Origin: a virus
Strand: one strand, 5' to 3'
Virus record (IMG/VR): IMGVR_UViG_3300045988_159775
DNA: 64,000 bases
Both the position numbers and the translations under genes were made by a program. This document shows, one piece after another, positions 23,163 to 64,000 of the stretch; the stretch's first letter is position 1, and the number at the start of each line of letters is the position of its first letter. The notes beneath the pieces were generated by a model that worked only from the letters and a program-made list of their open reading frames with translations, did no database searches and was not told the DNA's origin.

Positions 23163-24605
23163 TTAATCAGTTTCCCATTCTATTGGTAAATCTATACCGA
23201 AAAAATCCTCCATTATTTCCTTTGTAATTTTCTTTACAGTGGAAGAATCCTTTCCTTTCTCCAATTCCTTTTTGACTAACTTCTTACCCCCCTTAACCAA
23301 TCTTATGACTTCTTTCATATTGGAAGTGGCGTTAAAAAGTTCGTGAACTAAAGCAAAATTCTCTCGCGTATCTTTCAAATATTTTGCAGGAGACATTTTT
23401 GAGGCTTTCTTAAGAATAGCAGAAAATTCTTTGGGGGTAGCGTTCCATGGAATAATAATAGCGTTTATGTTTTCGAACAATGGATCATATACATCTTCTT
23501 GTCCTTTTACCAATCCTCTATAATCTCTCAATACCGGATAACAACCCTTTAACATAGCTTCTATTATAAAGCCGTTTATATGAGTTCTACAATACTGAGC
23601 GTAATGCGCTGCCCAAGACGGATCAACGGCAAATTTACTATTGAAAAGTCGGTCATTAACTTCCTCCGAACTTATCTGCCCAAGATATTCCATACCGAAT
23701 TCCTCCGCAACGTCCCAAATCTTATCTCCTATATATTTTTCGTCAATATCTGGATCGCGTTTCCGGCTTACTTTATACGGTTCTTTGCATTTCGTAGGGG
23801 CTACCATGTACGCCTGTTCTATTCCCGAACCTGCTATTTGTACGGAATACAATTTTGAAGCGTTACTGTTTAAATGCGGCACGGCTCTGATAAGGTCGTC
23901 AACGTGCTTCATGGACTTGAATATATGAGCGGCAAAGAAATCTATCTTTCTTTTGTTCATCATCTTTATAGGCATACGCGCATTCTTTTCCAAGAATCTG
24001 GGATTGAGTAGCAAAGTACGCGGTATTCCTATTTCTTTACAGCAATGATAAGCGGCTATGTGAGCGCATTCTACAAAAAGTATCTTATCTCTTAAAGCCG
24101 TAATATTACTGGCGCGAACGTTAAAATATGCATCGTGTGCGATAAAGATTTGTTTTACTTTAGACGTTGGTAAATCGTAGAATTTCCACCAAAACGAAAA
24201 ATCACCCTTACTCCAAGCAGAGGACTTCGTAGGCATAAAGTTCCAAATTATAAGGTCAAATCTATACGCTAAATCTCTCCAGCGTTCAAGAGCATTGGGT
24301 TCAAATACTCCTATACGATTACTGGGAGGAAGAAAGAACCCATAGTAGTTATTCTTCCAATATCCCGTTGCTTCATCATATTCGTACCCTCCGTTTTGAG
24401 AATTTATCTTAAGATTATCTTGAAACTTTCCTTGTTCTAACTGCTTTATTTTATTGTCATAAGTTCTTTGAGTCGTAGAACTCGGAGTCAATTGAGCAAT
24501 GTCTACGAAATGTCCAAGGGATTTTAAAGCCTTAACCTTGGCAGTTACATGCTCTACAATCCCCCCGTATTTCGCTATTTCGAAATCTGCTATTAATATC
24601 TTCAT
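23163..24605 (-). CDS. GT-B fold glycosyltransferase (GT4-like)
   Basis: N-terminus MKILIADFEIAKYGGIVEHVTAKVKALKSLGHFV and C-terminal NGFIIEAMLKGCYPV both fit group-1 glycosyltransferases. Confidence 0.65.
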   Translation of the reverse strand: MKILIADFEIAKYGGIVEHVTAKVKALKSLGHFVDIAQLTPSSTTQRTYDNKIKQLEQGKFQDNLKINSQNGGYEYDEATGYWKNNYYGFFLPPSNRIGVFEPNALERWRDLAYRFDLIIWNFMPTKSSAWSKGDFSFWWKFYDLPTSKVKQIFIAHDAYFNVRASNITALRDKILFVECAHIAAYHCCKEIGIPRTLLLNPRFLEKNARMPIKMMNKRKIDFFAAHIFKSMKHVDDLIRAVPHLNSNASKLYSVQIAGSGIEQAYMVAPTKCKEPYKVSRKRDPDIDEKYIGDKIWDVAEEFGMEYLGQISSEEVNDRLFNSKFAVDPSWAAHYAQYCRTHINGFIIEAMLKGCYPVLRDYRGLVKGQEDVYDPLFENINAIIIPWNATPKEFSAILKKASKMSPAKYLKDTRENFALVHELFNATSNMKEVIRLVKGGKKLVKKELEKGKDSSTVKKITKEIMEDFFGIDLPIEWETD

Positions 24606-25273
24606 TTCTTCATACCTTTATACCAACCGTCTGGAATAGGATTGGTAGAGAAAATCATTTTGTTTTCAATACCATTATTAATCCATATCATACCAGAATT
24701 TGTACCATAATTAATTCGATCTTTCCTCTTTTTCCTTTTAACTCTGTATGGGAGTCTACCGTATCTCCAACCCTCTGGCATTTCTTGGCCATGAAGTAGC
24801 CATGAATTTTTCAAGCCATTAGTTATACTCTTTCTTTTTGATATAGTAGCGGATAATTTATTTCTCCTTTGTTCATCCCATTTAACTCCCTTGTGACACA
24901 GCGAAACGGCTAATTTTGTTTTCTTGCTTATTTTTCTACCCATTGCTGATTCACTTATTTTCTTTCTAACTTCTGGCAAGGAAGATGGGTTTACTTGACC
25001 AAAACCATTAGCAGAACCGGGAAGTATGTTGTATCCAATTCTGGGGTTGGTAGCTCGTAACTTTTTTATGAATACCATTTCCCAAACATCAAGTAACTTT
25101 TGGTTATCGCATTCCTTTAGCGTCTCTCTTTTGAAATTTTCTCTACCATACTTCTTGATAGCATCTGTTATCTTTGTACCACTACCAAGATAATGTAGGT
25201 CTTTAGATATTGTTTGACCCACATAGATTTTACCATTAATTATACAAGTAGTTTTATAAATTATCCCATACAT
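24602..25273 (-). CDS. GIY-YIG homing endonuclease (free-standing)
   Basis: YGIIYKTTCIINGKIYVGQT is a GIY-x10-YVG motif, followed by basic NUMOD-like repeats. The first ATG is at 25273; the track start at 25279 is TTG. Its stop overlaps the glycosyltransferase ATG (ATGA at 24602-24605). Confidence 0.8.
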   Translation of the reverse strand: MYGIIYKTTCIINGKIYVGQTISKDLHYLGSGTKITDAIKKYGRENFKRETLKECDNQKLLDVWEMVFIKKLRATNPRIGYNILPGSANGFGQVNPSSLPEVRKKISESAMGRKISKKTKLAVSLCHKGVKWDEQRRNKLSATISKRKSITNGLKNSWLLHGQEMPEGWRYGRLPYRVKRKKRKDRINYGTNSGMIWINNGIENKMIFSTNPIPDGWYKGMKK

Positions 25274-25275
25274 AT

Positions 25276-25965
25276 TCAAAACGGCAAATCGCTATCTTTT
25301 CTACACCAAATTTCTTCCGGCAAATTCTTTTTAATATATCCATTTTCATAGAATAAAAGTCCCGATTGAGATTTGTAAAACTTAGAAGCAAGTTTCCATT
25401 TAATATCCGCAAATTCCTCTACCGGAACTGAAGATTTAAGATACCATTCTTTTTTCTGTTCTTCAACTTGTGCTTGAGAACGTCTTTTGTATGAGTGAGG
25501 AAATTCCCGATAATATTCCATGTAAGAAAAACCTTGTTGTAAGGTTTCACGGACGAAGAAATGAAACGGGTGTCCAACTCCCCAAGGGGCTAATACCCGA
25601 TAAAATTTATTTTTTATCAAAAAATTCCTTACCCATTCAACCAAAGCGGTTTCTATCTCATTCAGCGTATCTCTACCAAAGTACTCATTAAGGTATTTAT
25701 AAGCATTTTCCAAAGTGATTCCTTTCGGATAATCCTTATTATACCCATAATAGCTTTCATCCTTAAAATCAAGCTCCAAATGATAATACGGTATATTTAA
25801 GAATTCGAATAGTTTCTCATCTTCCTTAACCCTCTTTTCATCGTTCTCTACCGTGAGTACTTGAACTTCGTACTCCGGTAGCAAAAGAACGTGAGAGCAA
25901 GAAAATAACGCATCATCTGAGTGTGGAGCAATGATAAGATATTTTCTTTTTACTTCTTTTCCCAT
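25276..25965 (-). CDS. PIG-L / LmbE family N-acetylglucosaminyl deacetylase
   Basis: LIIAPHSDDALFS resembles the AHPDDE signature, and GHPFH supplies a second metal motif. 229 aa. Confidence 0.7.
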   Translation of the reverse strand: MGKEVKRKYLIIAPHSDDALFSCSHVLLLPEYEVQVLTVENDEKRVKEDEKLFEFLNIPYYHLELDFKDESYYGYNKDYPKGITLENAYKYLNEYFGRDTLNEIETALVEWVRNFLIKNKFYRVLAPWGVGHPFHFFVRETLQQGFSYMEYYREFPHSYKRRSQAQVEEQKKEWYLKSSVPVEEFADIKWKLASKFYKSQSGLLFYENGYIKKNLPEEIWCRKDSDLPF

Positions 25966-26906
25966 TTTCGTCTTACAATAATAGGAGACAAAAAGCCGTC
26001 TTTGTGCACACTTTGCGCTAACTTCTTTATGTCTGGAGTTATCTTAGGTAGAGTTTCCTGACCAGAACTGTCTGGAAGAAAACCGACTCTCATGCTTATA
26101 TTCGTGCATCCGCTACAAGGACGAAAATCACGGCTATAATTATACAACATAATTCGCGCTGCTACGAAACGTTCATGATTCCAAAGGTCTACAATACCCA
26201 TGTCGTTTATATTAGCAATAGGATATTCACCGCGAAAATCATCACAACACAGCGATACGTTTCCATCATACCGGAAAGCAAGCTCACGGAAAGGCATTGC
26301 ACAACGCTTATTATTGTAAGACTCGTCAAGTGGTGCTGCTGCTCCACAATGATTAGCTAATTTACGAGTTATTTTGTTATCTTCTTTTATCGGAGGTAGT
26401 AGAAGTATTCTTGACTTCTTGTTGCTGGTATAAAGCGGAACGCCCTTAGTGTAAAGTTCTACGTTCCATTTACCGTCTTTTAGTTTATTTACAAAATTCC
26501 AATCTCCCTCATCCGTATAACAATCTACAATGAGATTATTTATTCCTGCATCAAAAAGATCAGCTACATACTTATCCGCGTTCTTCGCCTTATTAGCCGC
26601 ATATCCATTTGTATACATATGAAATATTGAATCCGGAAGATACGAACGGAATATTTTCACTATTTCAAAAAGGTCGGCATTCAAAGTCGGTTCACCGTGC
26701 TGAGCAAATACGATCTTACTGCGCCATCCGGCTTTTGCTATTTCACTTGCTATTCGTTTTGCGGTTTTGATACTCATAAAATTCCAAGGTTTCGTACCCT
26801 TTTCACGCATACCTCTTAATCCACAAAACGAACATCCCAAATTACACCCCTCAGTAGGCTCTACTAAAACCGTAAAGGGCGCTTGTTGTACAATTTTCTT
26901 TTTCAT
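25950..26906 (-). CDS. radical SAM enzyme with SPASM/twitch-like C-terminal Cys cluster
   Basis: CNLGCSFC is CX3CX2C, at aa 21-28. The C-terminus has CAMPF...GNVSLCCDDF...CSGC. Confidence 0.85.
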   Translation of the reverse strand: MKKKIVQQAPFTVLVEPTEGCNLGCSFCGLRGMREKGTKPWNFMSIKTAKRIASEIAKAGWRSKIVFAQHGEPTLNADLFEIVKIFRSYLPDSIFHMYTNGYAANKAKNADKYVADLFDAGINNLIVDCYTDEGDWNFVNKLKDGKWNVELYTKGVPLYTSNKKSRILLLPPIKEDNKITRKLANHCGAAAPLDESYNNKRCAMPFRELAFRYDGNVSLCCDDFRGEYPIANINDMGIVDLWNHERFVAARIMLYNYSRDFRPCSGCTNISMRVGFLPDSSGQETLPKITPDIKKLAQSVHKDGFLSPIIVRRKWEKK

Positions 26907-26919
26907 TTTCTATTTTAAT

Positions 26920-27156
26920 TCAAGAACGTAAAATTTTATCTCTTTCCTCAGCGGTGCACTCACGACAACTTCCATCCGTCTTTTTTATCAAAAGAAACAT
27001 TGGCAATCCGTAGTTTCCATCTCCCAAATTATTAGGATAATATTGAAATGCATAGCAACCGTTCCACTCCGTAAAATATTTATTGAAATACTTTTTAGGA
27101 TTCTTTTTCTCAAATGCTATTTTTTGAGCTTCTTCTAAAGTGATTCCTTTCTTCAT
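26920..27156 (-). CDS. small hypothetical protein, possibly an immunity or partner protein for the upstream toxin domain
   Basis: 78-aa ORF. Its start overlaps the stop of the toxin-domain ORF. Confidence 0.35.
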   Translation of the reverse strand: MKKGITLEEAQKIAFEKKNPKKYFNKYFTEWNGCYAFQYYPNNLGDGNYGLPMFLLIKKTDGSCRECTAEERDKILRS

Positions 27157-27830
27157 AACTTAACTTCTTTTACCAATTCTTTTACAATATCCGCTTTAAT
27201 CGGAAGATTATCTACACGCATAAACTCTAATGGGACTTTAGCACTCATTCTTAATACACTAACTATGTCCGTACTAAAATCTTTTTCCAAACCGCTTTGA
27301 GGATCATAAAACCTTAACTTTCCACTTGGTAATTTTTCCATGGTAATAATATGACTACCTCTATCTGAATCGCATTCCCAACGGTATGCTAATTGATATC
27401 TACCGACATCAGCCGCGCGTTTAAAATAATTCAAAAAAATCGCCTTTAATTTATTCTTGCTTTTTATACCGGCAAAATACAATCCCTCTGGTTTATCGCC
27501 TGTATCTGGATTAGTATCATAGGAAAGTTTGGGATCAAATGCGAGTTTATCTTGAAATTCGTTCATTCGGGGTAAGGACATTACATCAAAACCTCTACGC
27601 CTCAATTCGTAAGTGACTACGCAAGTTTGACAATTTATTTGCCATTCCTTTCCTAATTTGAAATAGGGGTTAACTCTTCCCTCATTAGCTTCTTTGAAAG
27701 ACATAGGTTTGCCGACTTTCACTCCAAGTTCTTTTTCTATATCTTCCAAATTTTTGGAGATCGCATCGGTTTTCTTCTTTGGTATTCCTCTCCAATCGAA
27801 TTTACCGGGACGGTATTCTGTCCAAACCCA
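27153..27830 (-). CDS. papain-fold toxin-like domain (Cys-His-Asp; glutamine-deamidase/Tox-PL-like); probably the C-terminal part of the MuF protein
   Basis: NCQTCVVTYELRRRGFDV supplies the Cys, and GSHIITME...FYDPQSG the His and Asp. The frame is open from 27830 and encodes WVWTEYRPGKFDWR, which continues the module begun in the MuF frame. The only start in this frame is TTG at 27749. Confidence 0.55.
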   Translation of the reverse strand, partial: WVWTEYRPGKFDWRGIPKKKTDAISKNLEDIEKELGVKVGKPMSFKEANEGRVNPYFKLGKEWQINCQTCVVTYELRRRGFDVMSLPRMNEFQDKLAFDPKLSYDTNPDTGDKPEGLYFAGIKSKNKLKAIFLNYFKRAADVGRYQLAYRWECDSDRGSHIITMEKLPSGKLRFYDPQSGLEKDFSTDIVSVLRMSAKVPLEFMRVDNLPIKADIVKELVKEVKL

Positions 27831-36345: not shown

Positions 36346-37494
36346 TTATAGTGTTTTAGTTTTAGGAACGAATTTTGAACGCTGTTTACCCTCACCGATA
36401 ATCATTTTCCAGTACTTCTGGAATTCGCATAACCACATTTCAATCTGATGCAAGGTTATCCCCTCGTACATCATTAAGTTGGAATCTTTTTTGTATTCGT
36501 TGTACTCATTCCGGTTATAAATGAAATACTTCTTATTTTTGTAATCCCAACCCAGATACGGAAACGGTTCACTCTTTTCTTTCTCTATATCCTCAAGCAT
36601 GGAATCTGCGCAATCTCTTAACCAATAGATAGCTTTCTTTTGCTCTCGAACGGTTCTAAGACTGGGGTAAATAAGCCGGATGCCTATAGAAGCACCGGGA
36701 CCAACATTCGTAAAGGCGTTTTGATCGAACTTCATAAATTTCTTCTTCGTATAACGCCCAATATACGTAAAGTCCTGATAAAACTCATGAGCAATGAAAT
36801 CAGCAACCGCTGGAAAGGTCTTCAAATACTCTATAATATCCTCCGGCTTCTTAGCTATGACAACCTTTGCTATAAGTTCGTTCATATGCTTATGAAGATG
36901 AGGTATTACTACACGAGTGTAACAATAATCTCTCGGTTGACCGGGAGTTGCTTGAGAATTTATAAGATACGCTGTTGTGTAAGGATTCTGACCGGAAGAT
37001 CGTATTCCAGCAATAAAACGCGAAAATTCATCTTCATCATATTCTTCCCAATCCGGTATTCCGTTACGCCATTGCTTTGCTGAAATGAGATCATCCTTTC
37101 CTTGAGCTTGTTTAAGTCCTGACTTGATAGGTGCTCCAAACATATCCATTTGGAGCGTCTTTCCTTTAGGTTCAAACTCAAAAGTTTCGGGATTGTTAAA
37201 GAAGCGGAAAACCATCATCTTCCAAATAAGGTTTTTAAGAGAAAGACTTTTATCAAGAAGAATGTTTTTGATTTGCCATTGGCTATTTCTATCCAATTCC
37301 CGATATACGTTGGTAAACTTCGATTCTTGAAATATCTTGTTATCTGTCCAAGGACGCTCTTTTTGGTCAATAAACCTCCGTTTCCAGATCATCTGACGTT
37401 CGTACATAGTCTCAAAGAATAACCTCAAATGAGGTTTATAAACCTCCAAGGATTCATCCGGAAGTTTGCTATACCAAGCTGAATTTTCAAACAT
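36346..37494 (-). CDS. candidate DNA base hypermodification enzyme (alpha-glutamyl/putrescinyl-thymine pyrophosphorylase-like, aGPT-Pplase)
   Basis: YERQMIWKRRFIDQKERPWTDNKIFQESKFTNVYRELDRNSQW fits my recollection of the aGPT-Pplase N-terminal signature (ER..I..rR.G...PWT.D.I....rFtNvyRe.DR.sq). 382 aa. Confidence 0.45.
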   Translation of the reverse strand: MFENSAWYSKLPDESLEVYKPHLRLFFETMYERQMIWKRRFIDQKERPWTDNKIFQESKFTNVYRELDRNSQWQIKNILLDKSLSLKNLIWKMMVFRFFNNPETFEFEPKGKTLQMDMFGAPIKSGLKQAQGKDDLISAKQWRNGIPDWEEYDEDEFSRFIAGIRSSGQNPYTTAYLINSQATPGQPRDYCYTRVVIPHLHKHMNELIAKVVIAKKPEDIIEYLKTFPAVADFIAHEFYQDFTYIGRYTKKKFMKFDQNAFTNVGPGASIGIRLIYPSLRTVREQKKAIYWLRDCADSMLEDIEKEKSEPFPYLGWDYKNKKYFIYNRNEYNEYKKDSNLMMYEGITLHQIEMWLCEFQKYWKMIIGEGKQRSKFVPKTKTL

Positions 37495-40642: not shown

Positions 40643-40945
40643 AACGCGTTCCTCCTTATAAAATTCTAATTTCTGCTCCACCTACTTTCTTATCACCGCA
40701 ATTCAAAGTCTCGTATTTCATCGTTGTAAGATTGAATACTATTTCCAAAGTTACGCTTCCATTCTCCGTTCTATCATAAACAGTACTGATATGACGATAC
40801 ATTTTGTTTTTCATTACGAATATAACGTTTTAGTTAGTATTGAATATGAACGCTGTTGCATAAGCCAATGTGTTTTCTGTTCTTACTGTTGTTTTCATAA
40901 TTCTGTATTCTATTAGTTTTACAATTTGTTTTTCGATTATGAGTA

Positions 40946-40977
40946 CAAAGGTAAGGGTTTTGAGAATATCTACAAAA
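40946..40977 (-). promoter_or_regulatory. Bacteroides-type promoter
   Basis: Minus strand has TTTG, then 19 nt, then TACCTTTG (TAnnTTTG). Confidence 0.65.
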
Positions 40978-41024
40978 TTTTTCTTGGTAAATTTTTAGTT
41001 TTCCCAAAGAATTTAACTTTTGTT

Positions 41025-41057
41025 AAAAGAAAAGGACTACTTTCCCAAGCAATCCTT
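41025..41057 (-). terminator. intrinsic terminator
   Basis: Minus strand reads AAGGATTGCTT-GGGA-AAGTAGTCCTT followed by TTCTTTT. The stem is 11 bp with two G-U pairs and a GNRA loop. Confidence 0.6.
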
Positions 41058-41094
41058 AACTAATAGAACAAAATAACAAGACTAATACATCAAA

Positions 41095-41385
41095 TTATTT
41101 TATCAAATGGAACAATAAATTATCTTGTTCTAATAACTTTGCTAATTTTTCTTCAATAGCCGTACAATAAAAGAAAGCAATCTTTATTCCCAAAGAATTC
41201 GCAGCCTTATGCCATGCTTCAGAAAGAGCCTTAAACCTTTTATCACTCGTATATAGATCGTAGCAATTTAGGCAAATACAATAGCATTTCATATCACTAT
41301 CCTTATAACAGTAAGATATAATGCCGTCTTTCATCCCGTCTACCGTCCGAAGAATGCCTAAAAGGAAATTCTCAATCTTGTTCAT
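41095..41385 (-). CDS. Cys-rich small protein
   Basis: 96 aa containing CYKDSDMKCYCICLNC. It overlaps the ferritin-like gene by 14 nt. Confidence 0.35.
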   Translation of the reverse strand: MNKIENFLLGILRTVDGMKDGIISYCYKDSDMKCYCICLNCYDLYTSDKRFKALSEAWHKAANSLGIKIAFFYCTAIEEKLAKLLEQDNLLFHLIK

Positions 41386-41962
41386 CTTTTGTAAGCATTG
41401 CTAAACGTTCTGAAAGAAGATTCAAGTGAACCTTTTCATCCGCCAAGAGTTTTGAAGTTAACTGCATTGCTACTTTCATAGTGCGGGTAAATGTACCGTT
41501 GGCGGCTTCGGTAATCTTATTTTGAATAGACTCATAGACTTTGATAGTCTTTTCTTCCGATTCAATAGCAATCTTCAAGGCTTCCTCTACGCTACCGCCT
41601 ACGGCAACGGATGAGTTATTCCAACGTTGATCTATCTTGCCGCCTAACTTCCGTATGAAATCTGAAAGTTTATCGTAGTGCTTCATTTCAGTCATACCGA
41701 TACCCAACATAAGTTCGCCTACATCCTCAAACGTAGCTTCTTGGGTGACGTACATATTTATTGCCGTAAGTTCTGAAAAATCCGTTACGCCATTATGAAT
41801 ACCATAGAACCATTCCGCTGGTACTCCATCGTCCGGCTTTACGCCCGTATATTCCGGATATTCAACGTTTGGGTCAGAATAACGCATAGCATTTACCAAA
41901 CCATCTGTAAGATCGTCAAGTTGATTTTTACTCAACGGCTTCATTTTCGCAAAGTCTTTCAT
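41372..41962 (-). CDS. ferritin-like di-iron protein (Mn-catalase/CotJC/rubrerythrin-like four-helix bundle)
   Basis: SELTAINMYVTQE, TEMKHYDKL (ExxH), ESEEKTIKVYE and DEKVHLNLL (ExxH) make up the pattern. Confidence 0.55.
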   Translation of the reverse strand: MKDFAKMKPLSKNQLDDLTDGLVNAMRYSDPNVEYPEYTGVKPDDGVPAEWFYGIHNGVTDFSELTAINMYVTQEATFEDVGELMLGIGMTEMKHYDKLSDFIRKLGGKIDQRWNNSSVAVGGSVEEALKIAIESEEKTIKVYESIQNKITEAANGTFTRTMKVAMQLTSKLLADEKVHLNLLSERLAMLTKDEQD

Positions 41963-41972
41963 ATCTTCTTCC

Positions 41973-43061
41973 TTACTTCATTCCCGTGTGACCAAAACCT
42001 CCGTCACCGCGTTCCGTCACATCGTCAAACTCATTTACTAATTCAAAATCCGCCTTAACAACGTTTTCAACAAATACAAATTGAGCAATTCTCTCTCCTT
42101 TCTCAAAGAATACCTTTTCACTACCATGATTTATCAAAATTACGTTACATTCCCCACGATAGTCAGCATCAATCGTACCCGGTGCGTTAAGGCAAGTAAT
42201 ACCTTTCTTCAAAGCCAAACCGCTACGAGGACGACACTGTACTTCAACGTTCTCCGGCAGTTGCATGTAAAGTCCTGTATGAATCATGCGCCGTTCTCCC
42301 GGTTCTAATGAAAAATCCTCAGCAGCCTTTATATCCGCTCCAGAACTCTGACTTGTAGCGTAAACGGGCAATTCTCCACCCTCCTTAACAATGATTTTAA
42401 TCTTAACCGTTTTACGGGATTCATGAAAGTTTTCAACGAAAATTTGATTAAACTGATCGACTGTAGGACGGTATAACAAATCAGTTAACTTTTCAATATC
42501 TCCTCCTAAATCTTTAGCGATATTCTCAGCAAAACTCCGGAATTCGGATTCTGATAAATTCCGTTCCCGAATCAATTTCGCCAACTCTTTTACGCCAATA
42601 GATTTTTTAACAAAATGTTGTTTGATGAGTTCTCCAGAATTTTCGTCAATCATGAAAACTGGTATATCGCGTTTGATAGCCATCCGCAATTCCGTCTCCA
42701 CTCCGCCTTTAATCTCTCCAAGAAATACTGAGATACCGTCATTTTGCTCGATATAATCAAACATATGCTCCCGATAAAAATCCAACTCGCCGCTTTTCTC
42801 CAATCCCGGATTCCAGCCGTTTTGTTCCATTTCGATATGATCGTAAAGATCGTGGAACGCTTCGTGAATAGAATTATCAAAATCATTTTCAATAACTTCT
42901 TCCTCCGACAAGAAACAATGATGTAACTCAATTGTCGTATCCTCTGAGAGATCGTCAATGTATTTTTTTAAGGCGGTTTCAAATTCTCCTACTAACTTCT
43001 TTACATCTTGATCTTTTGGGGTAAAATGTAAACTTACTACTAATTTTTTCTTCTTTTCCAT
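41973..43061 (-). CDS. dut: dUTPase with a ~220-aa N-terminal extension (possibly nucleoside 2-deoxyribosyltransferase/DUF4406-like)
   Basis: All five dUTPase motifs are present: SSGADIKA, RPRSGLALK, GTIDADYRGE, ERIAQFVF, ERGDGGFGHTG. The N-terminal DGISVFLGEIKGGVETELRMAIKRDIPVF resembles the NDT-fold C-terminal motif. Confidence 0.85.
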   Translation of the reverse strand: MEKKKKLVVSLHFTPKDQDVKKLVGEFETALKKYIDDLSEDTTIELHHCFLSEEEVIENDFDNSIHEAFHDLYDHIEMEQNGWNPGLEKSGELDFYREHMFDYIEQNDGISVFLGEIKGGVETELRMAIKRDIPVFMIDENSGELIKQHFVKKSIGVKELAKLIRERNLSESEFRSFAENIAKDLGGDIEKLTDLLYRPTVDQFNQIFVENFHESRKTVKIKIIVKEGGELPVYATSQSSGADIKAAEDFSLEPGERRMIHTGLYMQLPENVEVQCRPRSGLALKKGITCLNAPGTIDADYRGECNVILINHGSEKVFFEKGERIAQFVFVENVVKADFELVNEFDDVTERGDGGFGHTGMK

Positions 43062-43314: not shown

Positions 43315-46047
43315 TTAAAGGAAAGCGTACTTAAATCCTGTAGTTATAAGATTAGAACCTAACATAGCAAGCCAAAAACTTGAACTGATGTCATCGTGGT
43401 TTCCGACCGAACACAACCCTTTATCTGTGAAAGCTACTGAACCTAAATCTTCAAAAATTAAATCTTTTACATTTTTTGAATAATCATCCCCGATAGGAAT
43501 ATGATATTTTCCCCGTTCGAATCTAATTGCCATCCCCGGCCATCCACTCTTGAGATCATACTTATCTATTCCCGTAGTGTGTCCTACAACGGGAAGTCCT
43601 TGGCGATCTGCTTCTTGGACAAATATCTGCTGAAAAGTATTCTGCTCCAATACCATAGAATCTGGTCTAAACTTTGCATTAATTCCTCTCAAAGTTTGCA
43701 TTTGCTCGTTAAACGTCAAGCCCTTTTCTCTAAAGAAATTCAACAGCCACATTTCTCCGGTCTCATCATCCACTCCCCAAGTCGTAAATACGGTATAGTC
43801 ACTTCCTACGTTTGCCGATATAGCAAAGTCGCAACCCACTACTACTTTATTAAACTTAATCGGAAAATCATCCCTATTTCTCACCAATACATAATTTTCC
43901 ATACGTACCAAGGAACGTTCCAAAACCTTTAACGGGAAAATAGACGCTTCATTCGTAATAGGTCTACAAAGGTTCTCCCGGCTGAAAATGATATTTCCTT
44001 GCGTAGCTCTCTTATCCAGAAGATCGAAGAAACTCCAACGGTGTGGCCAAAGTATTCGCCCGTCTGGGAAGATAGCCGGATATTCAATAACAAACCAACC
44101 TTTCTTAGTTTTCAAGTCTCCGTAAAGATCGCTTGCGTGGAACGGCGTTCCCACTACTACGATTTGACCACCGGGTACGAGCATGTTCATGATTACGGAA
44201 TGAAAATAGTCAATGCTCTTCTGCCTTTGTAATTGACTGTATATGACGTTATCTTTCAGTCCATCATCTACTACTATCCAGAACGGGTGAGCACCACGTA
44301 CAGAGCTTCCAAAACCCTTACACGTCAACCTCGCACCGTTCTTACATACTATATTCGTACTCGCCCACGCTCCAACGGCTCTCGTATCCGGAAAAAGACG
44401 CTCTCTCAATACGTCATTCCCCTCAATCGTACCCTTAAGTATTTCCATAAGGTCTACCGACTGCTGAAGTGAGAAAGAGAATAAATACCCACGGTTGGAA
44501 TTCGAACGCGTAGGACGAGCAGAAAAATGACTTCCACGGGGTTTAGAATATCCATATAATTTCCAAGCAGCGTATGCGTTGGAGAAATAGTAAGAATTAT
44601 GAGTTACCGTTCCATCTCCTAATAAAAATCTATGATCTCCGTCCGTAGTTATTGAAACGTACTCTCCACGCCCCACGTCAGTAATCTTTATAGAAGAAAC
44701 AACGCTTGGAGTTATTCCCTCAATCGTACCCCAATCTTTATTTGAAGTTTTTTCTTCCCAATTGTAAATCATCTTTTTTCTGGGAATCTTAACGGGTATT
44801 TGATCGATTTTTCCTGATATTGAAACTCCCCACCATTCATACATCCTCTTAAGTTGCTTATTGAACTTCTCCCCTCCGGAAAGATAAGTTCTAAACCCTA
44901 AACTATCAGCAAGTCTTTTTACGTCTTCAACTAAACGTTTATTGATGTTACCAAAGTGATATCCGTTGCTCCATAAATCTCCATCCGAATCTAAAAGCCC
45001 CGCAAGTAATTGTAGCCGGACGGCTTTAGAATTATGTAAATAAACATGCGGTATATGTTTATTGTAAAGAAGATTATACCCCTTTAAATACAAATTGAGT
45101 TTATTCTTAGTTTTGCAAGATATGACTTTTCTTCTTATATTAGACAAAAAACCTTTTCTGGAAGTTGTCATATCGAGTCTTTCCGCATATTCATCTAAAT
45201 ATTCTACAACTTCCAAATCTTCCGTAGTTATTTTTTGATTATTTGAATTTCCATCTCCTAACCAATAACCCAAAAAATAAGGTTCTATCAAAACTTTTCG
45301 TTCTGGCGCTTCCCAAGCAACCTTGAATGTTCTTATTCTCTCTTTTATGAAATTTTCAGAATAAGACAAAAGAGTTGACATATCAATATCTACAATATGC
45401 TTTTCATGATCTTCCAAGCAATTACCTCTTTTGTCTATTCTTATGCAAGTATTTATGTGACGACTGTTAACTGTATAGCTATCTCCCTTGCTTTGATCAA
45501 TTCTGTACATATGATCATCCCAACCTCTATGAACGGCAGTGACTTTACGTGGAGTAGAATCTACCCCCATTAGCAAATCTCCAACTTTAATGTCTTCGAC
45601 TTTTTTTATGCGTCCATCAAACATTAAAACGGGAGTACCAACTGCTTCGCACTTTCCGTGGTCGCGCGCCGCTTCTATACAAAGTTTCTTATGTCTATGT
45701 ACGAGATCTCCCCATTCTATGTGGTGCCAACTGAGTTGAAAATCCGGTAAAACTGAAGTAATGAAATACGTCAAATTATGAGTTCTTAAAGTCTCTTCAA
45801 TAGACTCCGATAGTCGCTCAGTATATTTAGGCGCAAAATCCACGTCAGTTTTGCCCGTATACATCACTTCAAACGTATCCCGAACTAAGTTATCAATAAC
45901 GAAATCTAAATCACCCTCCGATCCAAAAAGCAATTCATTTATTCCTCTTTCGTCCAAACCCTCTATTATTTCATCAACAACGTTTAAGCACTGCAATCTG
46001 TGCATTGGGGTTTGTAAAATTAATCCTCCGTTTTCTGAAATAGGCAT
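43315..46047 (-). CDS. terL: terminase large subunit, interrupted in frame by an intein
   Basis: Splicing out aa 133-484 gives the Walker A AARDHGK|S. The C-terminal half has a typical terminase nuclease region. 910 aa as the precursor. Confidence 0.8.
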   Translation of the reverse strand: MPISENGGLILQTPMHRLQCLNVVDEIIEGLDERGINELLFGSEGDLDFVIDNLVRDTFEVMYTGKTDVDFAPKYTERLSESIEETLRTHNLTYFITSVLPDFQLSWHHIEWGDLVHRHKKLCIEAARDHGKCEAVGTPVLMFDGRIKKVEDIKVGDLLMGVDSTPRKVTAVHRGWDDHMYRIDQSKGDSYTVNSRHINTCIRIDKRGNCLEDHEKHIVDIDMSTLLSYSENFIKERIRTFKVAWEAPERKVLIEPYFLGYWLGDGNSNNQKITTEDLEVVEYLDEYAERLDMTTSRKGFLSNIRRKVISCKTKNKLNLYLKGYNLLYNKHIPHVYLHNSKAVRLQLLAGLLDSDGDLWSNGYHFGNINKRLVEDVKRLADSLGFRTYLSGGEKFNKQLKRMYEWWGVSISGKIDQIPVKIPRKKMIYNWEEKTSNKDWGTIEGITPSVVSSIKITDVGRGEYVSITTDGDHRFLLGDGTVTHNSYYFSNAYAAWKLYGYSKPRGSHFSARPTRSNSNRGYLFSFSLQQSVDLMEILKGTIEGNDVLRERLFPDTRAVGAWASTNIVCKNGARLTCKGFGSSVRGAHPFWIVVDDGLKDNVIYSQLQRQKSIDYFHSVIMNMLVPGGQIVVVGTPFHASDLYGDLKTKKGWFVIEYPAIFPDGRILWPHRWSFFDLLDKRATQGNIIFSRENLCRPITNEASIFPLKVLERSLVRMENYVLVRNRDDFPIKFNKVVVGCDFAISANVGSDYTVFTTWGVDDETGEMWLLNFFREKGLTFNEQMQTLRGINAKFRPDSMVLEQNTFQQIFVQEADRQGLPVVGHTTGIDKYDLKSGWPGMAIRFERGKYHIPIGDDYSKNVKDLIFEDLGSVAFTDKGLCSVGNHDDISSSFWLAMLGSNLITTGFKYAFL
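44596..45651 (-). mobile_element. intein with LAGLIDADG homing endonuclease
   Basis: It starts at Cys in CEAVGTPVLMFDG and ends at ...GDGTVTHN, with Ser at +1. The two LAGLIDADG motifs are LGYWLGDGNS and LLAGLLDSDGD. Confidence 0.8.
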
Positions 46048-50940: not shown

Positions 50941-52359
50941 TTACTTTTTGAGAATTTGACGGTAAATTTCCTTTGATATAGCTTTTATTACTGGGATAGC
51001 TACGCTGTTACCGAATTGCTTGTAAGATTCGGTATTTGAAACCGCTATTTTAAACTCCATATTGTCCTTATACCTATCTTTTGACTTCTTATTCATCCAG
51101 CCGTTTCCCTCTATGAAATATCCTTGTAACCGTCCGGCTTCTACTGGAGTTAACTTCCTTGGGTTCTTTCCTTTGTCGGCTTGATAAATTAGTATTTCGT
51201 TCGCATCTTTATAGTATCTTGCTAAGAGAGTTGAACAATATTCACTATCTCTATCCCAAAGTGAATATCCAAAGCCATTGCCTTTCTTTTCATTCCTTTT
51301 CTTTCTTCTTTGATAACCACGTAGAGCAACGTCACTAATAGAGTAATGATCAGTTGTTGATTCTGGCTCGAATATATCCGAAAGTTTTGTTTTGATTTTT
51401 TCTTCTTGTACCTTTTGAGGATCATAAATATGCGTTCCATTCGGTTTTAATCCGTAAGGGAAATTAAAATCTTTGATATGTATTGTTTTATTATACCAAG
51501 CTATTATAAACAAACGCTCACGATTTTGAGGAACACCAAAATTTTTAGCATTCAAAACTTCATATCTATAAGAATATCCCAATTCAGAAAGAGTCTCCAA
51601 TATAACTCTCAAAGTCTCTCCTTTCTCGTGATTCTTTAATCCTTTTACGTTTTCTAAGAAAAGAACCCTTGGCGCCTTGGCGTTTTGTACCTTTTCCTTA
51701 ACTATACTGGCTATATTGAAAAACAACGTACCCCTTGTATCCTCAAATCCCTTTCTTTTTCCAGCAATAGAAAAAGGTTGACAAGGGAATCCTGCACAAA
51801 GTATATCGAAGTCCGGTATTTCTGAAAGTTTCTGTTTTGTTATATCGGAATTGAATAACTTGTAATCATTCTCAAATAAGTTTGGAGAAATATCTTTGTA
51901 ATTATGTTCATAGGTTATTCGGGCGTTCTTATCAATTTCACTCGCAAATACGCATTTAGCTCCAAGAGAATGCAGAGACTGATGAAAACCTCCTATTCCC
52001 GCAAACAAATCTATGAAAGTTACACGTTCAGAATTGCGTGACTCGTAAGCATTGATCTTTTCATTAGAATAAATCCCTACCTTAGAACTATGAAAGTCAC
52101 TTCCATTGTGGTTTACGGCATTGCTACAGTAACGTTTCGTCAGTCTATCTCTCGCGTTTACTAACTTCTCCCGTTTACGTATCGCGTACTGAACTTGACC
52201 GGGTATAGTTCCGTCTACCCAAAGGGCGTCTTTCAGTATTCTTTCTCGTTCTTTGGGAGGCATATTCATTGCCCTTGATACGAGATTGAGAAAGCGTTCC
52301 TCTTTTGTTATAGCCCAAGATATTTTCTTTATAACTCTTTGTGCAGTTTCTACGTTCAT
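50941..52359 (-). CDS. DNA (cytosine-5)-methyltransferase with a ~100-aa N-terminal extension
   Basis: Motifs I (FIDLFAGIGGF), IV (GFPCQPFS), VI (LFLENVKGL), VIII (QNRERLFI) and X (QFGNSVAIPV) are all present. Confidence 0.9.
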   Translation of the reverse strand: MNVETAQRVIKKISWAITKEERFLNLVSRAMNMPPKERERILKDALWVDGTIPGQVQYAIRKREKLVNARDRLTKRYCSNAVNHNGSDFHSSKVGIYSNEKINAYESRNSERVTFIDLFAGIGGFHQSLHSLGAKCVFASEIDKNARITYEHNYKDISPNLFENDYKLFNSDITKQKLSEIPDFDILCAGFPCQPFSIAGKRKGFEDTRGTLFFNIASIVKEKVQNAKAPRVLFLENVKGLKNHEKGETLRVILETLSELGYSYRYEVLNAKNFGVPQNRERLFIIAWYNKTIHIKDFNFPYGLKPNGTHIYDPQKVQEEKIKTKLSDIFEPESTTDHYSISDVALRGYQRRKKRNEKKGNGFGYSLWDRDSEYCSTLLARYYKDANEILIYQADKGKNPRKLTPVEAGRLQGYFIEGNGWMNKKSKDRYKDNMEFKIAVSNTESYKQFGNSVAIPVIKAISKEIYRQILKK

Positions 52360-52803: not shown

Positions 52804-53244
52804 TTATTCTGCCTCTACTGATTCAAGAAAATATTCCGTTAACACATCTCCAAGTTCCTTAAAATCTTTAAGGACTCTGTATTTTTCTAAATCTTTCTCA
52901 CTCCCGTATCCCAGTTCTTCAAGACACGTTTCATCGAGATATTCTGGATTGGGAGAAAAGAATTTTTCAGCAGCCGTCTTTATACGGTCAACGTATTCTT
53001 GAGGGAATTCTCTGTCTAATAAATTTATATTTCTCCTATTCAAGAAATATTGAATATATTCCATGAGTATTTTTGCTACGTTTTCCCAAGACTTATCATA
53101 CTTCAAATTTATTGGCCAACCTAAAGCCTTGCGAAATTGATTTGTTAACAAATCTACTGTTTCTTGATTAATATCTCTATTTCTATTAATGCTTGTAATA
53201 CAAGTGATAATTTCTTGTTTTGTAAGATCTACTGTTGCTTTCAT
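52804..53244 (-). CDS. hypothetical protein; first gene after cassette copy B
   Basis: 146-aa ORF starting MKATV, directly after the conserved leader. Confidence 0.4.
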   Translation of the reverse strand: MKATVDLTKQEIITCITSINRNRDINQETVDLLTNQFRKALGWPINLKYDKSWENVAKILMEYIQYFLNRRNINLLDREFPQEYVDRIKTAAEKFFSPNPEYLDETCLEELGYGSEKDLEKYRVLKDFKELGDVLTEYFLESVEAE

Positions 53245-53294
53245 AATTTTTCTGTATTCTATTAGTTTTACAATTTGTTTTTCGATTATGAGTA

Positions 53295-53326
53295 CAAAGG
53301 TAAGGGTTTTGAGAATATCTACAAAA
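53295..53326 (-). promoter_or_regulatory. Bacteroides-type promoter
   Basis: TTTG, 19 nt, then TACCTTTG. The leader is about 50 nt long, ending AATACAGAAAAATTATG. Confidence 0.65.
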
Positions 53327-53327
53327 T

Positions 53328-59451: not shown

Positions 59452-59953
59452 TTAATCGGTTAAAACTTTTGTTAATTTCTTTCTGGCGTGAAAGATACGA
59501 CTTTTCAGCGTACCCATTTCTATCCCCATAATATTTGCTATTTCATCATACCTATATCCGCAAATCAAATAGTTGATTGGTACGCGGTATATTTCCGGTA
59601 GAGCAGCAATAGCACTTCGAACGTCCAGCGATCGCGAATAATCATCCGTGTCTTCTGTTAAGAGGTCTAAACGCTCAAACATGCTTCTTTCTTCCTCATC
59701 CACGTTATCTCTCAAAAAAACTTTTGTTGCTGTATCTCTTATGAAGATTTATAAAAGAGTTCTTCAAAATCGTATATCCCCAAGCCTTGAGATTCGTTCC
59801 GTCTTCAAATTTATCCTTGTTAGAAAGCATACGGAGTATAACGTCACTTGCGAGGTCACGTGCCATCTCTACGTCTCCGGATAGAAGAACCTTAGCGCGA
59901 AGTAATAACGGCTCATACAAGGCAGATATTCGATCATCCAACGTGTCTTTCAT
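59452..59953 (-). CDS. ECF-type sigma-70 family factor, reading frame interrupted at a T7 run
   Basis: Region 2 (DLASDVILRMLSNKDKFEDGTNLKAWGYTILKNSFINLHKR) lies in 59705-59953. Region 4 (YDEIANIMGIEMGTLKSRIFHARKKL) lies in 59452-59715. The two frames differ by +1 at GTTTTTTTG. Confidence 0.7.
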
Positions 59954-63862: not shown

Positions 63863-63910
63863 ACTTTTACCCAAATATTTTATGGAAAACCAAGGAATTT
63901 AACTTTTGTT

Positions 63911-63943
63911 AAAAGAAAAGGACTACTTTCCCAAGCAATCCTT
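63911..63943 (-). terminator. intrinsic terminator
   Basis: Same hairpin as copy A, AAGGATTGCTT-GGGA-AAGTAGTCCTT, followed by TTCTTTT. Confidence 0.6.
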
Positions 63944-64000
63944 AGCATAAAGTGATAATCTAACTTATAGAAAATTACAACAAACAATATAAACTATGCT

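Follow-up and report, generated by a model that had tools for sequence, protein, structure and literature searches.

Here, we describe a gene carried by a 64,000-nucleotide stretch of viral DNA (IMG/VR record IMGVR_UViG_3300045988_159775), the whole of which is referred to below as the window. The gene occupies exactly positions 36346 to 37494 of the minus strand, starts with ATG and encodes a standalone protein of 382 amino acids (aa), which its open reading frame (ORF), Pfam match, AlphaFold2 (AF2) model and BFVD fold matches together identify as a genuine member of clade 1 of the alpha-glutamyl/putrescinyl-thymine pyrophosphorylase (aGPT-Pplase) family, or Pplase1, represented in Pfam by PF18723 (HMUDK_hel). 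The definition of this family is taken here via Lee et al. (2018 and 2021) rather than from Iyer and Aravind (2013).

An initial annotation of the window, made from the letters alone, had noted that an N-terminal segment, ERQMIWKRRFIDQKERPWTDNKIFQESKFTNVYRELDRNSQWQI (residues 32-75, as checked by translation), resembles the signature of the aGPT-Pplase family, and this resemblance was borne out. PF18723 matches the protein with E = 1e-46 (160 bits against a cutoff of 25) in two stretches, the better of which aligns residues 21-107 with profile positions 2-87 and spans the quoted motif; the search against aGPT-Pplase profiles that the annotation had proposed thus returned clade 1 as a significant match. 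The precomputed annotation of an identical protein is likewise PF18723, and PHROG 2396, a group of unknown function, matches with E = 1e-40, while no NCBIfam model was found for the protein. PF18723 is now named 'HMUDK_hel: 5-hmdU DNA kinase, helical domain' in Pfam (5-hmdU, 5-hydroxymethyl-deoxyuridine), and we take it to be the former aGPT-Pplase clade 1 model. This is in agreement with a phage record that calls its homologue of the protein 'aGPT-pyrophosphorylase clade 1', as well as with the matched BFVD entries, which bear labels of the form 'Pplase1 ... clade 1'. In tblastn searches, homologues were found at about 25% identity in SP10-like Bacillus phages, ViI-like Ackermannviridae, Serratia phage phiMAM1 and Vibrio K4xx phages; Bacteroides phages DAC/SJC and Chryseobacterium phage MA9V-3 were not among the matches at E ≤ 1e-5, and no near-identical DNA was found in cultured phages. 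Comparison by hhalign of a 70-sequence family profile with gp55 of phage M6 (probability 99.95%, E = 4e-38, 285 columns) assigns gp55 to clade 1 at the profile level.

Because identical copies of the protein occur on eight metagenomic contigs (including ones of 82.7 and 98.9 kb), homologues of 38-99% identity are found at 79 IMG/VR loci (many on contigs of 95-101 kb), and 2,278 of 1.8 billion cluster representatives, searched exhaustively, match it at E ≤ 1e-3 (almost all of them standalone and of 290-400 aa), the ORF can be regarded as a conserved coding gene. Rfam returned nothing in the window.

The alignment underlying the family profile, in which the 382-aa protein serves as the reference sequence, covers identities of 25-67%. 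All of the family-invariant residues (R33, N62, R65, D68, F233, G267, C356, and K360) are kept in the protein, as are the near-invariant W49, F60, L67, R97, N100, A175, D241, G265, P266, G271, E352, and E357. Four segments, all encoded on the minus strand, can be distinguished. The N-terminal conserved block (residues 21-107; positions 37174 to 37434), delimited by the Pfam stretch, the alignment and translation, contains the quoted motif with the invariant R33, N62, R65, and D68, along with W49, F60, L67, R97, and N100. It is followed by a lineage-specific insertion (approximately residues 108-145; 37060 to 37173), which is predicted to be disordered (predicted local distance difference test, pLDDT, 53-71, and below 50 at residues 126-131). 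The insertion is missing from most family members, for which the alignment breaks into two stretches on either side of query positions of about 107-145, and it forms a gap against M6 gp55 in hhalign. A G265-P266-G267 hairpin (36694 to 36702; GPG in translation), in which G267 is invariant and G265 and P266 are at least 90% conserved, may represent a helix-hairpin-helix (HhH)-like DNA-contact motif, and hhalign places it onto 'NaGPGA' of M6 gp55. Finally, E352-M-W-L-C356-E357-F-Q-K360 (36415 to 36441; translation checked), with C356 and K360 invariant and E352 and E357 at least 90% conserved, constitutes a putative catalytic Glu...Cys motif. The AF2 model of the protein is of high confidence (pLDDT 92.8; predicted template modelling score 0.91) and mostly helical, and in BFVD it matches SP10 gp186 (E = 9e-14, template modelling (TM) score 0.64) as well as C9DG43 of PhiW-14, a phiRSL1 protein and models labelled 'Pplase1 clade 1', with TM scores of 0.55-0.74. 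The invariant constellation of Cys-Glu, Asp, and Arg across 70 such divergent sequences argues for catalysis.

The genomic setting was examined beyond the window with the help of a relative, IMGVR_UViG_3300045988_134063 (100,071 bp), to which the window is colinear and about 97% identical; the remaining parts were tiled from three loci (L152, L175, and L162) by walking IMG/VR contigs. Outside the window, the genome encodes tail fibres, a ResIII/DEAD helicase, DnaB, a primase, a sigma-like factor, a 402-aa homologue of thymidylate synthase (TS), the DnaE Pol III alpha subunit, a YfbR-like HD 5'-deoxynucleotidase, an NMAD1 (DUF1599) protein, an SSB-like protein, RecA, SbcCD, and UvrD. The gene order around the clade 1 gene is conserved down to about 46% identity and runs from the large terminase gene (TerL) through FEN, a 208-aa ORF, a 110-aa ORF, the clade 1 gene and a 108-aa ORF to the portal gene. 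The TS-like and HD genes flank DnaE. Every one of the 35 relatives whose sequence reaches 9 kb or more upstream of RecA carries them, and in IMGVR 3300045988_134063 and 7000000690_000009 they share a contig with a homologue of the clade 1 gene. In close relatives, a GIY-YIG ORF (L088 4093-4887) splits DnaE, which is intact (1,179 aa) in L091.

The initial annotation had stated that neither a dUMP hydroxymethylase nor a 5-hmdU DNA kinase is visible in the window, which scans of the window confirmed; of the two partners it proposed to seek elsewhere in the genome, a TS-like homologue of the hydroxymethylase was located and a P-loop kinase was not. The TS homologue matches PF00303 (E = 2e-24, 86.6 bits) and scores far under the cutoff of every NCBIfam thymidylate-synthase model. 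Its best phage matches are in CP-51 (42%), a hydroxymethyluracil (hmU) phage, in a gene annotated 'pyrimidine hmase' (42%), and in PSA20, a 62-kb Pseudomonas phage (38%), as against 32-33% for ViI-like phages and about 25% for canonical T4-type td. It shares W80M, W83F, R127Q, H147N, and a C-terminal extension of about 150 aa with SP10 gp188 and Nachito, and the Vibrio K469 enzyme departs from this signature only in having A at 80 and Y at 83; Cys146, the nucleophile, and Asn177, which reads uracil, are retained in the TS homologue. It is therefore predicted, by similarity and these signature residues, to be of the dUMP-hydroxymethylase type.

A probable nucleotide-pool component of the same pathway is the dUTPase fusion at 41973 to 43061 (minus strand), which combines a C-terminal trimeric dUTPase (approximately residues 224-361) with an N-terminal domain of about 225 aa. 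The nearby dUTPase fusion had been proposed to feed into thymidine modification, and its dUTPase part is real (PF00692, E = 2.8e-28; NCBIfam dUTP diphosphatase, 172 bits against a cutoff of 103), while searches of protein families, PDB and PHROG returned nothing for the N-terminal domain. Only three close homologues of these 225 aa were found among 5.8 billion proteins, one of them standalone (243 aa), and the AF2 model (pLDDT 40) is unusable; a role of this domain as a cryptic kinase thus found no support. In most relatives carrying the dUTPase gene, a ferritin-like protein gene (41372-41962, minus strand, in the window) lies directly downstream of it.

In four cultured phages whose flanks were examined, a kinase is encountered close to the clade 1 gene: it is fused to it in SP10 gp186 (PF18748 kinase at residues 35-193, PF18723 at residues 313-598), adjacent in M6 (gp54/gp55), two genes off in Nachito and about 2.3 kb off in Vibrio K469, while none was found within 5 kb of the clade 1 gene in phiMAM1. 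Kinases reported for ViI-group phages are gp67 and gp243 (PMC5889632). In the present lineage, no clade 2 homologue was found in the window and about 170 related loci, and no dCMP deaminase was detected. A TET/JBP dioxygenase was rejected as another source of 5-hmdU, as no Pfam match to one was found anywhere in the genome.

Taken together, these features lead us to a reading in which belief and doubt are evenly balanced, namely that the protein is a standalone, helical, HhH-like, base-flipping DNA enzyme of clade 1 that acts after replication on 5-hmdU via Cys356, as part of a thymidine-replacement programme. The SP10/CP-51-type dUMP hydroxymethylase, the dUTPase fusion and the YfbR-like 5'-deoxynucleotidase would swap dTTP for 5-hmdUTP, and the DnaE polymerase would copy the genome into hmU-containing DNA. 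Cys356, aided by Glu352 and Glu357, may then attack C6 of the 5-substituted uracil in DNA, so that Pplase1 would turn 5-hmdU into a substituted thymine or back into thymine. Since, in contrast to all characterised systems, neither a kinase nor a clade 2 transferase was found, the leaving group would need another source, either an unrecognised activating enzyme or the direct, enzyme-catalysed loss of water from the Cys adduct. What the data show is the clade 1 membership, the complete set of invariant residues, a confidently predicted fold, the co-conservation with the hydroxymethylase-type TS and HD nucleotidase genes and the lack of recognisable kinase and clade 2 genes; DNA as the substrate, 5-hmdU as the target, the Cys mechanism and the product are all elements that we infer.

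Several results weigh against this reading. No match to PF18748, the family of 5-hmdU DNA kinases (5-HMUDK), was found in any scanned ORF or in the precomputed annotations, with SP10 scoring 83 bits as a control. A custom 5-HMUDK hidden Markov model (HMM), built from the four kinases of SP10, M6, Nachito, and Vibrio K469, was run against 7,127 ORFs of the window and the approximately 170 related loci and at E ≤ 10 returned nothing beyond the sequences it was trained on; a Walker-A scan returned SbcC, UvrD, DnaB, RecA, and one non-kinase-like ORF, with no kinase candidate. Nor was a deoxynucleoside monophosphate kinase for 5-hmdUMP detected in this genome. The clade 1 gene lies within the packaging/head module, between TerL and portal, about 45 kb around the genome from the TS-like gene. 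The complete genome is a reconstruction from a relative of about 97% identity rather than the window's own contig, the ThyA and gp42 reference sequences in the TS alignment were entered by hand, and the dUMP-hydroxymethylase type of the TS homologue is assigned by similarity and residues rather than by an assay.

Further points on the same side come from clade 2 (PF18724), to which every proven transfer of an amino acid or diamine onto phosphorylated 5-hmdU belongs (PMC8989533, PMC11472151, PMC13458397). The proven enzymes are M6 gp51, ViI gp247, PhiW-14 gp109, PaMx11 gp46/PUGT, and the Pplase2 proteins of YuA and SH-Ab15599 (PMC8989533, PMC11472151, PMC13458397). PF18724 gave no match to the 382-aa protein at E ≤ 1, and hhalign of the clade 1 profile was non-significant against both M6 gp51 (E = 0.11) and a 41-sequence clade 2 profile (E = 0.022, probability 2%). 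Neither sequence nor profile searches of PDB, which contains 8Z2M and 8Z2N, gave a match, and Foldseek of the model against PDB gave nothing at E ≤ 1e-3; the PUGT structure 8z2n ranked third (E = 0.89, TM 0.32/0.39, weak and non-significant) alongside QNG1/DUF2419, MjOgg, and AlkA. BFVD models of clade 2 proteins matched weakly (E = 0.04-0.2, probability 0.82-0.98, TM 0.33-0.47), those labelled 'amino acid:DNA transferase' with probabilities of 0.98 and 0.91 and a TM of about 0.45. The assignment in the initial annotation therefore stands for the superfamily and for clade 1, and not for the clade with proven activity (E = 0.022-0.11); the action on pyrophosphorylated 5-hmdU that it attributed to the family is not supported for this protein, as the proven activity on phosphorylated 5-hmdU is that of clade 2, to which the protein has no significant similarity. 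Moreover, M6 gp55 is dispensable for the formation of Nα-GlyT in vitro, only the clade 2 protein gp247 has been proven necessary in ViI, and catalytic activity has been demonstrated for no clade 1 protein (PMC8989533); the SP10 kinase is active without its C-terminal clade 1 domain (PMC8989533).

On the other side, SP10 makes glutamylthymine with a clade 1 domain only, no clade 2 gene having been detected in it (Table 3, PMC5889632), so that a transferase role of clade 1 stays plausible. Two further lineages with comparable gene sets, L083 and the HTVC023P-type pelagiphages (PMC9599517), both described below, likewise speak for the preferred reading, as does the weak fold relatedness to clade 2 models and to PUGT, QNG1, Ogg, and AlkA. 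The two clades appear alike in their helical HhH-like architecture and in a putatively shared Glu-x-x-x-Cys near the C-terminus, and both are set in phages with TS-like hydroxymethylases. The Glu...Cys motif is the sole segment of the protein that hhalign aligns with clade 2: both runs, although non-significant, put IEMWLCEF (E352...C356) onto VETVLCKW of gp51 (E243...C247), in which a Glu lies close to the essential Cys247 (PMC8989533, PMC11472151). This alignment suggests, at a level that is statistically not established, a Cys-based chemistry common to clades 1 and 2. The clades are nevertheless separate Pfam families with the non-significant profile and low TM values given above, the position following the Cys is occupied by Glu357 in this protein but in clade 2 by Lys248, which in the YuA enzyme binds the carboxylate of glycine, and clade 2 requires phosphorylated 5-hmdU (5-PmdU) from a kinase, which was not found in the present phage.

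An alternative, which keeps to the pathway of the initial annotation, is that the protein follows the canonical route, displacing phosphate or pyrophosphate from 5-PmdU and adding an amino acid or polyamine, with a kinase that is unrecognisable because it is of a non-P-loop type, supplied by the host or encoded by a dark ORF such as the one for the N-terminal domain of the dUTPase fusion. The clade 1 proteins of cultured phages, which are fused to, near, or share a genome with a 5-HMUDK, are in favour of it, and about half of the genome's ORFs, including that N-terminal domain, are unannotated and could harbour the kinase. However, the Pfam, custom HMM and Walker-A searches were all negative for a kinase, none was found in a second, unrelated lineage carrying a clade 1 homologue either, and amino-acid transfer is proven only for the clade that was not found here. 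We consider this alternative unlikely.

That second lineage (L083 9577-13926, in IMGVR_UViG_3300045988_125592), which repeats the kinase-less pattern, comprises PolA-type phages of about 50 kb and encodes an AT-hook-extended homologue of 37% identity, with NMAD1-like, S-adenosylmethionine (SAM)-methyltransferase-like, and dUTPase-like genes as neighbours, together with a gene for a 248-aa T4 gp42-like hydroxymethylase homologue that has Asp at the base-reading position. This context hints that clade 1 proteins may also serve cytosine pathways. It bears on another alternative, in which the protein would be a DNA-pyrimidine enzyme unrelated to 5-hmdU, either glycosylase-like or Cys-dependent and acting on another base, such as 5-methylcytosine produced by the C5-methyltransferase of the phage, 5-hydroxymethylcytosine or uracil, or an anti-defence factor directed against host nucleic acids. 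Apart from the gp42-like and SAM-methyltransferase-like companions in L083, the weak HhH-glycosylase/QNG1-like character of the fold, the C5 cytosine methyltransferase encoded in the window, homologues in bacteria and fungi (PMC5889632), an aGPT-Pplase domain in a predicted defence system (PMC13092281), and BFVD matches in phiRSL1 and Aeromonas phage 31, which are not known for T hypermodification, would all fit such an enzyme. The strict co-conservation with a hydroxymethylase-like TS of the uracil-reading Asn177 type and the HD nucleotidase does not; no PADLOC defence-system model matches the protein, and the nearest characterised contexts are all thymidine pathways, which makes this alternative rather improbable. 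Two divergent representatives of the family, P0200 and P0162, lie on contigs of only about 3.5 kb, too short to be informative on gene neighbourhoods.

A non-catalytic role in DNA binding or packaging, in which the protein would read modified DNA together with terminase and portal or serve as the small terminase, is very improbable: the TerL-portal position is conserved over the protein's own family, PHROG_800 'terminase small subunit' matches it (E = 1e-6), and RefSeq gives that name to SP10 gp186 and M6 gp54, yet these two are validated 5-hmdU DNA kinases and the name is an annotation error (PMC8989533), the invariant Cys-Glu, Asp, and Arg set points to catalysis, and elsewhere the gene sits in nucleotide-metabolism rather than packaging modules. 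An identity as small terminase was accordingly rejected, the PHROG_800 label being inherited from the misnamed kinases. The misnaming affects M6 gp54 (L180 13686-14249) and SP10 gp186 (L001 5056-6969) in RefSeq and the kinase homologue of Vibrio phage K469 (L178 8487-9149) in GenBank; the label, also present in PHROG_800, can mislead the automatic annotation of this pathway.

The preferred reading, a clade 1 enzyme acting on 5-hmdU in DNA, can be set beside several known systems. With its clade 1 relatives (the C-terminal domain of SP10 gp186, M6 gp55, ViI gp160-type proteins, and PhiW-14 C9DG43) the protein shares the Pfam family, the fold and the invariant residues, and with SP10 also an SP10-type TS homologue in the same genome. 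It differs from them in its low identity (about 25%), in standing alone, neither fused to a 5-HMUDK nor encoded close to one, in the insertion of about 40 residues (108-145), in its TerL-portal location and in a host that is probably a member of Bacteroidota. Compared with canonical thymidine hypermodification (Lee et al. 2018 and 2021), the TS-like hydroxymethylase was found here, whereas the kinase, the clade 2 transferase and clustered tailoring enzymes were not. In their pre-replicative pathway, the hmU phages SPO1, SP8, and CP-51 likewise bias the dNTP pool with a TS-like enzyme (that of CP-51 being the nearest), a dUTPase and a nucleotidase, but they keep 5-hmdU in the virion, and SPO1 had no aGPT-Pplase in a genome comparison (PMC5889632). 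HTVC023P-type pelagiphages, described in a 2022 study, have co-located TS and aG/PT-PPlase1 genes, sometimes with a 5'-deoxynucleotidase, and no kinase is mentioned for them (PMC9599517). These uncultivated phages thus share the same set of three genes (PMC9599517), but they are marine podoviruses with the genes close together near PolA, whereas here Pplase1 stands apart in the packaging module of a myovirus of about 100 kb. The gene family and the partnership of TS, Pplase1, and nucleotidase have therefore already been described, and the value of the present case is that it is a natural kinase-less system with clade 1 only, spread over a very large family of uncultivated phages.

A more specific form of the preferred reading, which we put forward tentatively as a possibility to be doubted, is a kinase-independent route in widespread phages of about 100 kb, probably of gut Bacteroidota. 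In it, the clade 1 Pplase alone would convert 5-hmdU through a Cys356-C6 adduct, with direct loss of the 5-hydroxyl or non-P-loop activation, and the product would be an undescribed hypermodified base or regenerated thymine.

The phage itself is probably an SPO1-like myovirus of about 100 kb that infects Bacteroidota, on account of its major capsid protein and of TAnnTTTG-like cassettes. The capsid protein is about 47% identical to those of the B. thetaiotaomicron phages DAC/SJC, 41% to that of Chryseobacterium phage MA9V-3, and 36-37% to those of SP10 and Nachito. Promoter-like intergenic cassettes are repeated in the window at 40913-41063, 53230-53327, and 63889-63951. The first two share about 95 nucleotides running into ATG, including the TAnnTTTG-like TACCTTTG; the first and third share an upstream block of about 50 nucleotides. 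A further copy of the cassette lies outside the window, at about 89.35-89.5 kb of the relative contig. TAnnTTTG is the consensus of the Bacteroidota -7 element.

Several other features of the window were recorded, on the minus strand unless otherwise indicated. The large terminase gene (43315-46047, 910 aa) contains an intein/homing-endonuclease insertion (Hom_end_hint, with faint Hom_end and LAGLIDADG_3 matches). Sigma-70 regions 2 and 4 lie on separate, overlapping ORFs (59452-59715 and 59705-59953; about 82 and 83-87 aa), so that either a frameshift is involved or the phage encodes its sigma factor in two parts. A further sigma-like gene (214 aa) lies outside the window. The C5 cytosine DNA methyltransferase mentioned above is encoded at 50941-52359 (Pfam E = 1.8e-87; PADLOC MTase_II), so the phage probably also methylates its own cytosines, independently of thymine chemistry. 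At the left end (1-697), plus-strand ORFs converge with an otherwise all-minus window and continue, in the relative, into large tail-fibre genes; the 191-aa protein at this end is absent from a large gene-position index.

A radical SAM/deacetylase/glycosyltransferase cassette had also been suggested as a possible extension of the pathway. Its radical SAM/SPASM gene (25950-26906) was confirmed, but nothing ties this gene to DNA, and the other two members have no profile support. The 'glycosyltransferase' (23163-24605) and the 'deacetylase' (25276-25965) were rejected, as neither has Pfam, NCBIfam or PHROG support; by eye, only an LmbE-like APHSDDA motif is seen. The radical SAM/SPASM protein resembles peptide/cofactor maturases, has a weak viperin-like PADLOC match and is encoded in the structural/lysis region about 10 kb from the clade 1 gene, and no partner dependent on pyridoxal phosphate or flavin adenine dinucleotide was found beside it. 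A GIY-YIG homing-endonuclease-like ORF (24602-25279) lies between two unannotated genes beside the radical SAM gene, and a protein with a papain-fold Gln_amidase domain (27153-27749) is encoded nearby.

Every classical thymidine-hypermodifying phage encodes a clade 1 aGPT-Pplase, and metagenomic sequences of this clade number in the thousands, while experiments have centred on clade 2. With a hydroxymethylase-type TS, pool-biasing enzymes, and clade 1 present, and with no kinase or clade 2 protein found, any modification in this phage would therefore report clade 1 chemistry alone. If the DNA carries plain T or hmU, the possible roles of clade 1 would be narrowed too. If it is modified, a large group of phages, apparently from gut samples, would have non-canonical thymidines, with a bearing on restriction evasion, on bias in virome sequencing and PCR, and on enzyme discovery for DNA labelling. 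Should the kinase-independent route prove true, clade 1 would gain its first assigned activity, and the enzyme regenerating T from 5-hmdU in SP10, PhiW-14, ViI, and M6 could be recognised.

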